A stretch of DNA of 63,974 nt, the filler included, from Reclinomonas americana ATCC 50394 (Eukaryota), in the NCBI GenBank assembly GCA_048213135.1. It is 11 parts of 11 records of this genome, joined end to end, with 100 filler letters (N's around TTAATTAATTAA, not from the genome) between each part and the next. Parts side by side here need not be neighbours in the genome. Positions count along the whole stretch, not along the records: positions 3,425 to 24,194 come from AFZH01019792.1; 10 more parts are not named here. One strand, 5' to 3'. This document shows positions 5,565-19,341 of the stretch, piece by piece (within the stretch, counting starts at the first letter, position 1; the number at the start of each line of letters is the position of its first letter). A program made the translations under genes and the position numbers. The notes under the pieces were generated by a model. It saw nothing but the letters and a program-made list of their open reading frames with translations. It ran no database searches and was not told the DNA's origin.

Positions 5565-8500
5565 ATGAACCCACTCGAGTTCCGCTCACTGCACTCCTTC
5601 TCCAACTTCTCTCTCTCTCTCTCTCACACTGCCTGTCTCTCTGCAGCTCTCCTGATACATACCGCATTCCACCGCCCTCACCCGGTGTCTCAGCCTCTCC
5701 CTTCCCAACACCAGTGCGTCTCCACCTTCAAAGTGTATGTGTGTGTGTGCGCGCGCGACACTCATCCGCTCACTTGCTGTATGTGTGTGCACAGGCACCC
5801 ATTGATCACTCGTTTCCCCGAAGTGATAGTGCAAGTGGCAGCGGGTCTGTCAGTGTGTGTGCGCGTGTGTGCCTCTCTCTCCCTCTCCCTCCCTACTCTC
5901 TCCCTCCCTCTCCCTCCTCTCTCTCTCTCTCTGCTTGCTTGTCTAACTCACTGATCTCATCAATCACTCTCTCCCTCTCTCTCCCAACTCCCTCCCCACT
6001 CTCTCCCTCTCCCTCTGTCCTGCAGCTGGCCACACGTGCCTCCACCCGCCCCGGTAGACGACGGAGTTGACCCACAACGGTGATCGCGTTCGTGTTCGAG
6101 CGCAGTGATGATCTCCGCTCGTTCTCACACACACAGGCCACCGAACACAGAAAGTTGCAAAATGCACTGCGCTTGCACCTGGCCACGCTGCAGTCGGCTC
6201 TCCGTGTGCTGCGCGCCTACCTCGAGCAGGCAGTGATCAAATTCCGCCAAGAGGTGCTTCTCGACGACACCGCGCTTCCCGTGCGGATCGATGCGACCTA
6301 CTTTGTTGATCCGAAACCACTGCCGCCTGACTTGCAGTGGAGGTACATCTCACTCACACACATTATTCCGAGCCTGATTTTCCCCCGCAGCATGGCTCAC
6401 GCACTCGCCTCCTTTGCGCAGATATCGAGTTGTGCACAAGGCTGACGGCACCGAGTACCGTGTGCGCTCCAAGCTCAAGCAAGCCGAGCAAAAGGCGGCG
6501 TGGGAGACGCTGTTCAGGACTGGATCTGCGGCCGACCTGGATATCACGGCGGCGAATTATTGCGCGCAGCTCATTGGATATCGACCGGTGAAGGCGTACG
6601 CGACCGAGCCGAAAACCACAGACAAGGCCAAGTTGTGGGACGCCGAGTGCCAGCGGGAGCGTGCAGCTGTGCTGTTGGTGCCCGACAAACCAGCGGTGCG
6701 TGCGAGTCTCCTCTTTATCTCACTCGTTCCCTGCGCTCATGTTTTCTCTCATTGCCCTCTTCCCCCCTTTCCCTTTCCTGTCCACCTCCCCCACAGAGAC
6801 TGGCGTTTCACTGTGTGCAGCAGATCCGCAACGAAATCGTGCACGCCGAGTCCATTGGTCTCACCGACGACCAATTTAACAGCACCATGAACGACCTGGT
6901 TCGCAGTGTGCGCGAACTGGCGGCCTCGTGCAACGTCACTGTCAACTCGCACTGGTACGGTGAAATCGATCGCATCATGCACGGCGATGTGAGCGCCATG
7001 CTGTCGGACTTTGACGGCAAGGTCCGTCGTCTGTGCGACTCGCAACTGGCGAGGTTCGAGGACGCTGTGCAGTGCACATTCGATGTCTCCTGCGCCGCGC
7101 CAGATGCTCGCGATCATCGAGCGCCTGTGACTCATGAGGTGAGCGCTGCTGCTGATGTGTGTGTGTGTGTGCGTGTTTGTTGCATGGGACCTTATGCCGT
7201 CATCGAATTTCGCCCGGGCAGGTGCGCACCTTCTTGGCCAACCAAAAAGCACACGTCATGCTTTTGTTTGGCGCCGCGGGTAGCGGTAAATCACATGTGC
7301 TGGCTCGCACCGCGGTGGAGTTGGCTCGCCGCGTTCTGCACGAGGGCGACACGTCGGAGAGGCTTTCGCAGTGTCGAGTGCCAGTGTACATTCCGCTGCA
7401 CCTGCTGCAGCTGCCGGCGGATCGCCTGCGCAGTCAGCTGCTTCCGGAGGCGCTCAAGTTGTACTCCGGCGACTTTTCGGCCAGTGATGTCGATCGTTTG
7501 CGCCAACAGCCGCTGCTGCTGCTCGTCGACGGCTTTGACAGCGCCAACATTGAGGAGCACATTTTTACCAGAGACGGAGTTGCGTTGTGTGTGCTCGAGG
7601 TGTGTCATTTTTTTCAAAATCAGCTGCTGCTGACCCGTCTGCCCGTGGCGCCTGCAGTTGCTGCAGTACCAGAACGTCAAGGTCATCATCGTGTGCCGAC
7701 CCGAGTATGCGGCTCAACTCGGCACCTCCGAGGACGACTACGTGCAAGTGATGTGGCCAACAGCAGTGGCCGGCACGCTCGTACACCAGCAGTGGCTTGT
7801 CCAGCGTCTTTTGTTGCCACTTGCCGACGATGAGTTGGTGTCGGCCATTGACGAGCTGCAGCTCTCCAACGATGATTCGAGTCCAGTGGTGGAGATTGGC
7901 GCCAGTGCCATCAGCAAACTGACGCTGCTGCAAGCGTCGCCGGCACTGTTGGCGCTGTGTCGCCTGCCTGCGCTGTTGACCGAGTGCTTTGCACACATTG
8001 CGGCGGCCGCCGTGGACCACTTTCAAGGGTCGTTTGGTTCGTGGGAACACGTGTGTGGCGTTCTCGCTTCGTGGATGGTGTCGGAGCGGGAGCGCATCAT
8101 CCAAGCTGGCCAACCCGGTTCGGTTCCGTCTGTCGACGAGTGCCTCACGTGGGCCAGCCGCTTCGCGCAACTGGTGACCATCAGTCGCGAGTGGGAGATC
8201 CACTTTCCACGCGCCGCCCGAGTTGACGAGGCAGACGCTAATCTGTTGGAGGGTCTGCCAGTTGCTGGCGCTCCCAAGCGCGGCCAACACGCGCTCGCTC
8301 TCGGCGGCAGTGCTGAGGTGGACCGCGAGAGGTCAGCAGGCGACGACGCATCACCGTCGCCGGCTCCTGGCACAATAGCGCCGTGGTCACCGGACATTGG
8401 CATGCGCCGCATCATGGACATGATGCGCCAATGGGCCTCACGCCGCCTCTTTGTGCCTTTCCTGCTGTGCACATTGCCGGACACCTACTACATGGTTGAC

Positions 8501-17500: not shown

Positions 17501-19341
17501 CATTTTTCTCGCTGCGCAGCAGGGCCACGCAGCGATCCTGCGCATGCTGCTCGCCTGTGCCCCATCTGGCGCTCGTGTTGCCTCGCGAGACGGTCGCCTG
17601 CCGATTCATCAGGTATGTATGTGTTGCATTCTCAACATTATTCGGCGACGCACCTGAGTGTCTTTTATCGATCCTCCCACCAGGCGTGCCAGAGTGGACA
17701 CGCCGAGTGCGTCTCAATCCTGCTGGACGCCGACCTCAACACCATTCAGCTGCCCGACAACGCTGGCACATATTGCATTCATTTGTGCGTGTTGGCCGAG
17801 CACTGGACGGAGCAGCGATCCGAGATATTGCAGTTGTTGTTGGCGTTCGGTGGCATCGAAATGGCGCTGGTGGAGGACGGCGACGGTCATTGTTGTCTGC
17901 TGGTAGCCGCTGCTCGCAACCACATGGAGGCCATTCGCACGCTGCTGACCATGAACCCTGCACTGGGCGTGCACATGTTTCAAGAGTCTCTCACAATTCT
18001 GCACGTGTTGGCACTGCGGCAAGATACGGCGGCTCTGGTACGGTTGGTGTGCGAGCTGTGTCCCGACACTGTGCACGTTCAGGCCGAGCGCTGTCCCGCA
18101 CATCTGGCCGCCAACAAGGGCAACTATGAGGTGCTAGCCGCGCTTCTCGAGTTCGCTCCCCATTATGCACTGGCGATGGATCCGCGCACATGGCTGCCGA
18201 TCCACCTGGCAGCTCAGCAAGGATCTGTGGAGTGTGTTCGACTGCTCGCAGAGTGCAATCCGGCCACCGTGGCCATGGAGGCTGACAATCACGTGCTGCC
18301 TGTGACGATTGCTGCCTTGTTGCGTCACTTTGCTATCGTGGCTTGCTTGAAACAGTCGTCGCTGATGTCGGCCACAGAAAGGGCAATCGAGAAGCGGCGC
18401 TTTATTTGGCACGGCTGCAACCTGAACTGGTGCTTCGGTGCGACTCGGTGCTGCACATGGTTTGTGCATCGCTCCTGTGTCTCTCTATGTGTGTGTATCA
18501 GTGCAATGCACTCACGTACCACCACATCCGCAACTCTGCGAATACGCGAAGAATGCCGTTGACTTTGCCCGACACGGCAACTTTGCTCTGCTTGCTGGCG
18601 AGCTTACAGAAGTCGCACAAGGTGGCGCGATGCTGAGTGGCATGGGAGAAGGGCTGCCTGTTTCGGAAGACATCGAGGCAAGTGTCAATTGCTACCGCTG
18701 AGCTGCTGTGGTTTCTGTTGTTTCTGATGGACGTTCGCGATCCGCAGGAGTGGGAACGACAGGGTCACGCCGCCATTGATGCTGGCGACTATGCTCAGGC
18801 ACTCCGCTGCTTCCAGCACGCGTTGCAGAAACTTGGTGTGTAAGAAGGACCAATTGTTGCAGTGTGCATGCACGCGACAGCCTGAAGTAGTTGCTGCTGC
18901 TGCTGCACAGACAAACAACCGTCGACGGAGACGGTGGTCAGCCGTACAGTTTCGCTTCGTCTGCGTGCCGCCGAGTGTCAGCTTCGTCGCCAGCGCTTCG
19001 CGGCGGCCAAGGCCGAAGCCGAGCTTATTCTCGAGCGACTGCCGCGTCACGTGGAGGCCGCCATCATTGTCGGCCGCGCGCATCACGGCCAGGGCGATGT
19101 CAACGAAGCACTGCTACAATTCGATCGCATTCTGCAATGGGACTCCCTGGAAGACCGCCAACGCGACGCTGTATCGTTACGACCTCCTACACCATGAGTG
19201 TCGCCTTTGTGTTGCACGAGTGCTGATCTACATGACCTCGCGCGCAGACAACTTCGTGACAGCATTCGCAGTGCGATAGCGAGTGGTTCTGTTGCCCGGC
19301 ATCAACCGCCGCATCCTCCTCACGGACCCTCTTCTCCCTGA
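5565..19341 (+). CDS. Giant multi-exon NLR/STAND-like protein: HEPN-NACHT-HEPN-NACHT-pentapeptide repeats-WD40 repeats-ankyrin repeats-TPR
   Basis: Walker A GAAGSGKS (7270-7293) and GDGGSGKS (10029-10052). Walker B LLLLVDGFDS (DGFDS 7528-7542) and LLLLCDGYDE (DGYDE 10251-10265). Sensor-1 VCR/TCR; WHD FLHPSLLEY; RxxxxH motifs at 6827-6844 and 9467-9484; then pentapeptide, WD40, ankyrin (PLHxAA) and TPR segments. Frame stays continuous through GT-AG introns from ~6137 onward. The 5' end (5565 vs 5162) and 3' end (19341 vs 19197) are uncertain. Confidence 0.88.
6137..6990 (+). other. HEPN domain 1 (DZIP3-like HEPN) of the giant STAND protein
   Basis: Spliced: ALRLHLATLQSALRVLRAYL...ADLDITAANYCAQLIGY...KLWD...RLAFHCVQQIRNEIVHAESIGLTDDQFNSTMNDLVRSVREL. 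Matches the remembered DZIP3-type pattern (D-I-T motif, W, IRN-x-x-x-H, then F and a helix). Confidence 0.75.
7222..8590 (+). other. NACHT-like NTPase domain 1 (partly degenerate)
   Basis: VMLLFGAAGSGKS, VPVYIPL, LLLLVDGFDS, KVIIVCRPEY; no recognisable FxHxS winged-helix motif. Confidence 0.8.
8810..9620 (+). other. HEPN domain 2 of the giant STAND protein
   Basis: Spliced: RELWLRLDCAISQVVLPALRFH...DSMELTFLSSLICFLGY...SYWD...RDAVAGMRDIRNSVFHEELSTAEAMEHVFEQLAKYL. Confidence 0.72.
9981..11560 (+). other. NACHT NTPase domain 2 (canonical) with HD1/WHD
   Basis: Upstream LYVPLEC, then VMLVLGDGGSGKS, LPLRVSL, LLLLCDGYDE, KIIITCRSDF, LVPFSPAQIEEYL, SPFML, WAFLHPSLLEYCLA. Confidence 0.9.
11560..11770 (+). 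other. Pentapeptide-repeat segment
   Basis: ASNSATILCRAHVSFSGRILDGIRIPYADLSTANLQRASLARSDLRHVALDTAFCVDTDFSEADMTDAKL (A-D/N-L-x-x periodicity). Confidence 0.85.
11790..14010 (+). other. WD40 beta-propeller repeat array
   Basis: Repeated units such as ISGHNNGDIVMW, LSPDGSMLAAG, AADDGCIYVW, FTPDGHWISAAGSDG, ISGSQDGRLLLW, GDSEGGVRVFD. Confidence 0.88.
14140..18620 (+). other. Long ankyrin-repeat array in three blocks separated by low-complexity linkers
   Basis: More than 25 units of the type LPLHTACLHGH, TPLHVAAFNG, TPLHFAAEKGN, TALHFAAQNGH, LPIHLAAQQG. Confidence 0.9.
18748..19170 (+). other. C-terminal TPR-like helices
   Basis: EWERQGHAAIDAGDYAQALRCFQHAL...AECQLRRQRFAAAKAEAELILERLPRHVEAAIIVGRAHHGQGDVNEALLQFDRIL. 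Confidence 0.75.

Follow-up and report, generated by a model that had tools for sequence, protein, structure and literature searches.

RNases of the HEPN superfamily require two Rx4-6H motifs in one composite active site; Cas13 carries its two HEPN domains in cis, and the HEPN-type KEN domains of RNase L and Ire1 are paired in trans. STAND NTPases gather their N-terminal effectors by nucleotide-dependent assembly after a ligand has bound to their repeats. Here we describe a giant gene of Reclinomonas americana ATCC 50394 (assembly GCA_048213135.1) in which a head with an Rx4H motif and a NACHT-type STAND NTPase appear to have been joined twice over, ahead of a long repeat tail. The gene lies on the plus strand of a stretch of 63,974 nucleotides (nt), linkers included, which we refer to as the window.

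Fusions of HEPN to NACHT are familiar from several lineages. The DZIP3-type HEPN domain was catalogued in 2013 as fused to NACHT, TPR and ankyrin repeats (Table 1 of PMC3710099), and the same survey reports expansions of this type in Nematostella and oyster and a lineage-specific one in Capsaspora. The pearl oyster has more than 50 HEPN-NACHT proteins (PMC9646362) and each anthozoan 17-83 (PMC8260672), 'HEPN-NLRs' are recorded in nine invertebrate taxa with a function that is called hypothetical (PMC8662601), and bacterial NACHT proteins with HEPN RNase heads have been described (bioRxiv 10.1101/2022.07.19.500537). Where a role is discussed for these receptors it is termed predicted or hypothetical (PMC8662601, PMC9646362). 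A tandem of effector and NTPase is found in Arabidopsis RPP2A, which is given as TIR-NBS-TIR-NBS-LRR (PMC2175511; bioRxiv 10.1101/2023.04.25.538220). Corals, bivalves and bacteria have HEPN-NACHT receptors in abundance, and the gating of a HEPN RNase by a STAND NTPase is the question at stake.

Comparison of its sequence with known families leads us to interpret the R. americana gene as a giant STAND/NACHT, NLR-like gene built by duplication of a HEPN-type head together with NACHT, the second unit carrying the repeat tail. We assign this reading a probability of roughly 0.6.

Two homologous units of head and NACHT

That the gene encodes two real NACHT modules is, from profile scores and motifs, virtually certain. 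The preliminary description of this DNA had proposed two NACHT domains, and both P-loop regions score above the Pfam cut-off for NACHT (PF05729, 26.7 bits), the P-loop half of module 1 with 27.9 bits (unspliced piece 7156-7833) and that of module 2 with 30.6 bits (unspliced piece 9966-11066). Both modules have a Walker A motif of the form GxxxxGK[ST], a Walker B motif of the form hhhhDGxD(E) and a conserved R downstream, the final acidic residue of Walker B being replaced by S in module 1.

The units of head and NACHT are homologous to each other, with 27% identity over 451 columns (E=4e-21). Within them, 64 of the 265 aligned positions of the heads alone are identical (24%), and the P-loop exons D1 and D2 are 42% identical. 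At the introns that precede exons B, C, D and E the two units agree in both residue and phase, and the intron before exon B follows a W in both modules and interrupts the codon of an R (AG|intron|A). The intron before exon A is nearly shared, being offset by four codons, and module 2 has one intron more than module 1. Module 1 closes shortly beyond a C-terminal YMVDQAFTMALA stretch, for which comparison by eye gave FLHPSLLEYCLA as the counterpart in module 2. It has no repeats of its own, and the whole tail is attached to module 2. Judged from alignment and intron positions, the unit of Rx4H head and NACHT is an ancient tandem duplication and the two modules are old paralogues.

The heads resemble HEPN domains

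Both motifs that the preliminary description had reported, RNEIVH in head 1 and RNSVFH in head 2, are found where it placed them (Table 1) and align with each other, and the GT-AG introns that were said to split the HEPN-like regions are seen in both heads. No other RNxxxH string occurs in the 3,815-residue model, and the two lie 120 and 127 residues before the Walker A motifs. Each has the form of the HEPN motif (Rx4-6H, usually with N after R), in which the N is described as canonical (PMC9646362). R, N and H are invariant between the heads and belong to IRNxxxHxE, within the best-conserved block of the head alignment.

The six head exons were compared with Pfam, each alone, at E<=10. Exon C1 gave a sub-threshold match to PF18738, HEPN_DZIP3 (E=0.076, 13.2 bits against a gathering cut-off of 27), in which its residues 7-48 align with profile positions 84-127 of 144, a partial domain; its second match, also sub-threshold, was to PF18735 (E=0.19), and both are HEPN families. 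Look-alikes in the ESM Atlas, which we treat as leads only, point the same way. For C1 the best named cluster was PF18738 (score 0.88, 182 of 256 features). For C2 they were HEPN_Apea clusters (0.90, 16 of 30 matches) and also Csm6 HEPN clusters, which are HEPN families other than PF18738, and all ten of the best family-bearing matches share a family or clan with the top one. C1 and C2 are 25% identical, and each resembles HEPN clusters independently of the other. In an AlphaFold2 model of exon C1 alone, the chain is all-helical with four helices, the motif lies inside the first (2-20), and the mean pLDDT is 61.5. The heads are probably HEPN domains, as far as motif, profile and look-alike resemblances go; the likeliest identity is an RNase domain of the HEPN superfamily, with the DZIP3/hRUL138 type as its nearest kin.

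A composite repeat tail

The tail had been described as pentapeptide-WD40-ankyrin-TPR. Its first three elements are above the Pfam cut-offs; the TPR element falls just below, two exon pieces scoring 26.0 bits against 27 for TPR_2 and 23.4 against 32.7 for TPR_16. Beyond the matches listed in Table 1, piece 13121-14440 matches WD40 (25.9 bits) as well as Ank_2, and Ank families match five open reading frame (ORF) pieces with E-values from 2e-4 down to 7e-24. By these profile matches, the pentapeptide repeats and beta-propellers of the tail are followed by ankyrin repeats, some 25-30 of them, and by a small number of TPRs. No LRR family is among the Pfam matches for the 20 pieces covering the gene (for the 1,641-residue piece, among the best 25 of 37 families), and as the strict definition of an NLR in PMC3879445 asks for NACHT with LRR, we call the product NLR-like.

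Relatives of the second NACHT module

A HMMER search of 1.84 billion representative proteins with the C-terminal half of NACHT2 returned 48 proteins at E<=0.001, only one of them at E<=1e-10, and the best match scored 57.8 bits with 31% identity across some 110 residues. The 25 of these 48 that were scanned with Pfam are NACHT-pentapeptide-WD40 proteins with kinase, TIR or ARM_5 heads; among the matches listed for them, Pentapeptide is present in at least nine and WD40 in most. One relative of the 48, the predicted protein P0011 (1,595 residues), has the order ARM_5-NACHT-NACHT-pentapeptide, with two complete NACHT modules in one chain. Another database relative, P0041, has a second Walker A motif that is not NACHT-like. 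A PADLOC match of our gene to REase_II (E=0.032) was taken as chance.

Alternative readings of the heads, the role and the chain

A number of results weigh against a HEPN identity of the heads. No HEPN family is reached at the Pfam cut-off by any head exon scanned singly (best 13.2 bits against 27), and five of the six, C2 included, have no Pfam match at all at E<=10. Foldseek comparison of the partial C1 model with the PDB returned generic helical bundles only, none at E<=0.001; because C1 is only half a domain, this model and search cannot decide the fold. A PDB sequence search with the C1/C2 profile gave 0 matches at E<=10, PADLOC matched no HEPN model, its P-loop matches (Avs2 among them) being weak, and NCBIfam returned no HEPN match and nothing relevant. 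Among the 48 NACHT relatives, none has RNxxxH N-terminal to Walker A (four have it only downstream, and 12 have no Walker A match), and phmmer matched the spliced head to none of them. Word-indexed homologue searches, which covered proteins up to 2,000 residues and hence could not have shown a complete protein of some 3,800, found no homologue for the NACHT1 C-terminal half or the D1/D2 alignment, and gave 583 candidates for the C1/C2 alignment with none at E<=1. Metagenome scans with the NACHT1 C-terminal half and the C1/C2 alignment produced pattern matches, of which tblastn confirmed no relative. As no homologue with the head was found, conservation of the motif is read from two paralogues only. 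These observations could be accommodated if the heads were non-catalytic helical adaptors, like the helical N-terminal NACHT-associated domains that have been catalogued (bioRxiv 10.1101/2022.07.19.500537), and RNxxxH were not an RNase site: all profile matches are below threshold, the partial C1 model has no structural match, and the motif has been found in no homologue. We nevertheless consider adaptors improbable, given that paralogues only 24% identical both retain R, N and H within their most conserved block, that the motif has the N noted as canonical for HEPN (PMC9646362), and that the sub-threshold Pfam matches and both ESM Atlas searches indicate the HEPN clan and no other fold. The role of the protein can be questioned on separate grounds, since it might be a housekeeping scaffold like some NACHT-WD40 or ankyrin proteins, with no part in immunity or cell death. 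Its neighbours are ordinary housekeeping genes (phosphoglucomutase, a BEACH protein, Dor1/COG8 and Gemin5), no second NACHT was found in the 150 other ORFs scanned, out of 160, in the window, where no paralogue cluster or expansion is visible, and NACHT combined with ANK, TPR or WD40 is described as widespread among eukaryotes other than metazoans, with no immune role known for it (PMC3879445). A HEPN-type head is, however, typical of conflict systems (PMC3710099), the closest NACHT relatives have kinase, TIR or ARM heads of conflict-system type, and the lack of any close relative among the 1.84 billion representatives (best 57.8 bits) would be expected of fast-evolving conflict genes. A scaffold is unlikely in our view, and a conflict or immune role, argued by analogy, seems somewhat favoured.

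The other choice lies between one chain and two genes, and turns on the junction of the units. We think that head-NACHT-head-NACHT-repeats is probably one polypeptide, as read from splice signals and codon usage. The alternative donors of exon E1, 8525|8526 and 8588|8589, are both in frame with the acceptor at 8659|8660, so that both variants are open, and the stretch 8525-8587 between them is still coding-like (+0.16 per codon); downstream, the frame is likewise kept from the AAG|GTACGT donor at 8729|8730 to the CAG acceptor at 8809|8810. Scored over its 22 whole codons in the joining frame, with held-out training, the linker exon reaches 0.204 bits per codon, close to the coding median of 0.219; 53% of 1,646 true coding windows attain this score, against only 5.3% of 1,068 non-coding windows free of stops. 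As the linker exon has no ATG it must, if coding, be joined upstream. On the other side, an open splice path is weak evidence, because one in three GT donors is in frame by chance and introns rarely contain stops, and the frame of module 1 runs open to a stop whose last base, 8671, is some 100 nt short of ATG 8772. In so compact a genome, where 348 nt lead from the giant gene's stop to the following ATG, two genes 103 nt apart would be unusual and not absurd. Under this arrangement a first gene, a sensor-less head-NACHT, would end at TGA 8669-8671, or at TGA 8773-8775 with only the first junction intron spliced, and a second, head-NACHT-repeats, would begin at ATG 8772, their products acting as a pair in the manner of helper/sensor NLR pairs; RPP2A is reported to work with the adjoining RPP2B (PMC2175511). 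ATGs 8772 and 8781, the only possible starts for module 2, are indeed in frame with exon A2 without splicing. Their surroundings nevertheless score -0.15 to -0.36, and the stretch that holds them resembles a polypyrimidine tract with a CAG acceptor; the last 27 codons before the stop at 8671 also score as non-coding. Further points against separate genes are the narrow gap, in which no (CT)n tract occurs (8526-8810), unlike the DNA upstream of the first recognised exon, the phosphoglucomutase ATG and the Dor1-bearing ORF, the coding-like score of an exon without an ATG, and the GTACGT...CAG ends of 8730-8809, whose length is typical of the introns of this gene. Two genes are accordingly a possible but less likely arrangement, and they would then form an ordinary tandem pair of known kind.

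Retention of intron 8730-8809 would bring the linker frame to a stop at TGA 8773-8775 (overlapping ATG 8772 as ATGA), and the transcript would yield a sensor-less head-NACHT isoform, possibly a regulated short form.

Gene model and surroundings

The 5' half of the gene was spliced by hand, with each GT and AG checked, and the 3' part was assembled through the ankyrin exons to the stop with a crude dynamic-programming exon-chaining script. All elements are in plus-strand stop-to-stop frames between 6.1 and 19.2 kilobases (kb) (Table 1). The spliced model has 3,815 residues without its first exon, or 3,794 with the alternative E1 donor. On splice sites and coding scores, this appears to be an intact multi-exon gene; its protein would have 3,800 residues or more, the model lacking the 5' exon.

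Table 1. Coordinates of features of the giant NACHT gene and of neighbouring genes, in window positions.
Feature	Position	Strand	Remarks
Exon A1	6137-6342	+	First helical part of head 1; GT/AG checked; homologous to A2
Exon B1	6422-6695	+	Middle of head 1; codon score +0.36
Exon C1	6797-7138	+	Rx4H helix of head 1 and linker to NACHT1
RNEIVH motif (Rx4H), head 1	6827-6844	+	Read directly
Exon D1	7222-7599	+	NACHT1 P-loop half; Pfam NACHT 27.9 bits
NACHT1 Walker A, GAAGSGKS	7270-7293	+	Motif read
NACHT1 Walker B, LLLLVDGFDS	7513-7542	+	Motif read
Exon E1	7658-8588 (or to 8525)	+	Remainder of NACHT1; no repeats after it; codon score +0.36
NACHT1 downstream conserved-R motif, VIIVCR	7682-7699	+	Within exon E1
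Linker exon, 70 nt	8660-8729	+	Would connect module 1 to module 2; no ATG; flanks AG and AAG|GTACGT
Exon A2	8810-8998	+	First part of head 2; homologous to A1; donor phase as in A1
Exon B2	9074-9362	+	Middle of head 2; codon score +0.32
Exon C2	9437-9620	+	Rx4H helix of head 2
RNSVFH motif (Rx4H), head 2	9467-9484	+	Read directly; aligns with RNEIVH
Extra module 2 exon	9695-9873	+	Pre-NACHT linker; preceding intron not in module 1
Exon D2	9981-10313	+	NACHT2 P-loop half; Pfam NACHT 30.6 bits
NACHT2 Walker A, GDGGSGKS	10029-10052	+	Motif read
NACHT2 Walker B, LLLLCDGYDE	10236-10265	+	Motif read
4.8-kb exon	10379-15184	+	Rest of NACHT2, pentapeptide, WD40/beta-propeller, ankyrin start
NACHT2 downstream conserved-R motif, IIITCR	10403-10420	+	NACHT2 extends to ~11630
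Pentapeptide repeats	11639-11758	+	Pfam 23.2 bits, cut-off 20.2
WD40/beta-propeller blades	~11828-13460	+	WD40 70.7 bits in 1,641-residue open frame
Ankyrin repeats	from ~14150	+	Ank_2 150.5 bits in 1,641-residue open frame
Further ankyrin exons	15267-18437	+	Approximate boundaries; dynamic-programming exon model
TPR-like C-terminal exons	~18683-18835, ~18911-19194	+	TPR_2 and TPR_16 below cut-offs
Stop codon of giant gene	19195-19197	+	End of last coding-like ORF
Phosphoglucomutase (PGM) gene	ATG 19546	+	N-terminal peptide recognisable
BEACH/PH_BEACH/neurobeachin-like giant gene	24384-36000	-	Ordinary eukaryotic housekeeping gene
Dor1 (COG8)-like gene	37899-38597	+	Ordinary eukaryotic housekeeping gene
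Gemin5-like gene	46405-49091	-	Ordinary eukaryotic housekeeping gene

Exon A1 scores +0.31 per codon in frame, compared with -0.27 and -0.36 in the other frames. Because it starts at an AG acceptor, an ATG-bearing exon is expected upstream of 6137, and no in-frame ATG occurs in exon A1 itself. The start at ATG 5565 that had been proposed was not sustained, the codon usage around it being non-coding (-0.59 bits per codon); ATGs 5162, 5195, 5381 and 5565 were all rejected as upstream starts since each scores negative. On the plus strand of 3425-6140 no 30-codon window reaches a coding score of 0.25, and an upstream search for a look-alike of the linker peptide gave nothing significant (best E=0.46). 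The proposed end at 19341 gives way to the stop listed in Table 1, which closes the last coding-like ORF ahead of the next gene. A final exon at 19391-19486 offered by the dynamic-programming model was rejected, as it lies within the CT-rich leader just before the PGM ATG.

The window has a G+C content of about 50-64% and is eukaryotic DNA with short GT-AG introns. Ten identical 100-nt linkers, each of 44 N, TTAATTAATTAA and 44 N (3325-3424, 24195-24294, 28962-29061 and seven more), indicate that it is a chain of 11 contigs, and adjacency across the linkers is an assembly decision. The giant gene is fully contained in one piece, 3425-24194, where 348 nt (19197-19546) separate its stop from the PGM ATG. 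The minus-strand BEACH-domain gene seems to cross several pieces in order. No second HEPN gene was seen in the window, and Rfam and tRNA scans of it gave no match. (CT)n microsatellites occur before the first recognised exon of the NACHT gene (5609, 5917), upstream of the PGM ATG (19487 and 19503, in the region 19487-19528) and upstream of the Dor1-bearing ORF (36942, 37239); as each of these three features is on the plus strand, with the tracts on its upstream side, the tracts are candidate marks of promoters or leaders in this genome.

A possible mechanism

Both Rx4H motifs and both sets of Walker A and B motifs are intact, and there is one repeat tail. The most likely mechanism, in keeping with STAND proteins in general, would have the tail bind a ligand, whereupon nucleotide-dependent opening and oligomerisation of the NACHT modules would bring the HEPN heads together; the paired Rx4H motifs would then make up a working RNase site for cleavage of cellular or invader RNA, and the cutting would constitute a conflict or cell-death response. 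The pairing of heads could take place between chains, by ordinary induced proximity, or within a chain, as the preliminary description had it. In the second case, one chain with two HEPN heads and two NACHTs would be a self-contained intramolecular RNase, with a Cas13-like cis site under STAND control: ligand on the single tail would drive a rearrangement of NACHT1 and NACHT2, and the Rx4H motifs would meet in cis without a higher-order oligomer. We regard such an arrangement as very doubtful; about 600 residues of NACHT1 separate the heads, and no result supports cis pairing. If the gene does encode one chain, it offers a compact construct with which to ask whether activation occurs when HEPN heads pair, and it would extend the architecture to a eukaryote that may lie outside animals.

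Comparison with known systems

The claim of the preliminary description that this is an NLR-like STAND protein, headed by an N-terminal HEPN-type domain and equipped with repeat sensors, agrees with architectures printed in PMC3710099, PMC9646362, PMC8260672 and PMC8662601. The further suggestion that the logic of the layout is undescribed is not supported, as the published account of RPP2A already gives a tandem of two effector-NTPase units followed by repeats, and P0011 has two NACHTs in its chain. The papers found on two or several NACHT domains describe no single chain with two. We found no description of a doubled HEPN-NACHT unit in the literature, the supplementary architecture tables of PMC9646362 and PMC8260672 being outside the scope of the search. 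What appears to be new, from the domain order, is the doubling of the HEPN-like/NACHT unit; the single HEPN-NACHT architecture is already known from invertebrates, Capsaspora and bacteria.

The DZIP3/hRUL138-like HEPN-NACHT proteins, so far as their published architectures go, share with this gene an N-terminal helical head with an Rx4H (RN...H) motif directly before NACHT, C-terminal repeats other than LRR (TPR, WD40, ankyrin) and an RNase role that is predicted in both cases. They differ in that the unit of head and NACHT is double here, the PF18738 score is 13.2 against 27 over a partial domain, the tail mixes pentapeptide, propeller, ankyrin and TPR elements, and the head has no detectable sequence relative.

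Bacterial and eukaryotic NACHT-pentapeptide-WD40 STAND proteins, including those of bNACHT/Avs type, whose heads are HEPN or other enzymes (bioRxiv 10.1101/2022.07.19.500537), are the closest sequence relatives of the NACHT2 half and have swappable N-terminal effectors (kinase, TIR, ARM_5). An Rx4H head is present in 0 of the 48, however, the best identity is 31% over about 110 residues, and the R. americana gene has spliceosomal introns and an ankyrin/TPR extension. P0011 resembles it in having two complete NACHT modules in one predicted polypeptide, whereas its ARM_5 head is listed once (residues 4-280) and only the NTPase module appears to be doubled in that predicted protein. Cas13 and RNase L/Ire1 build a composite site from two Rx4-6H motifs, and this gene has two such motifs if it encodes one chain, but its heads lie about 600 residues apart with a whole NACHT module between them, and homology would be at the level of the superfamily at most.

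If the gene encodes one chain, its likeness to RPP2A is one of layout, with a self-associating enzymatic effector and a STAND NTPase repeated twice and followed by one repeat sensor. RPP2A is reported to be a functional plant immune receptor, and it combines TIR with NB-ARC where the present gene combines a HEPN-like head with NACHT, and the two are of independent origin; the parallel with plant TIR-NBS-TIR-NBS-LRR receptors hints at convergent solutions.

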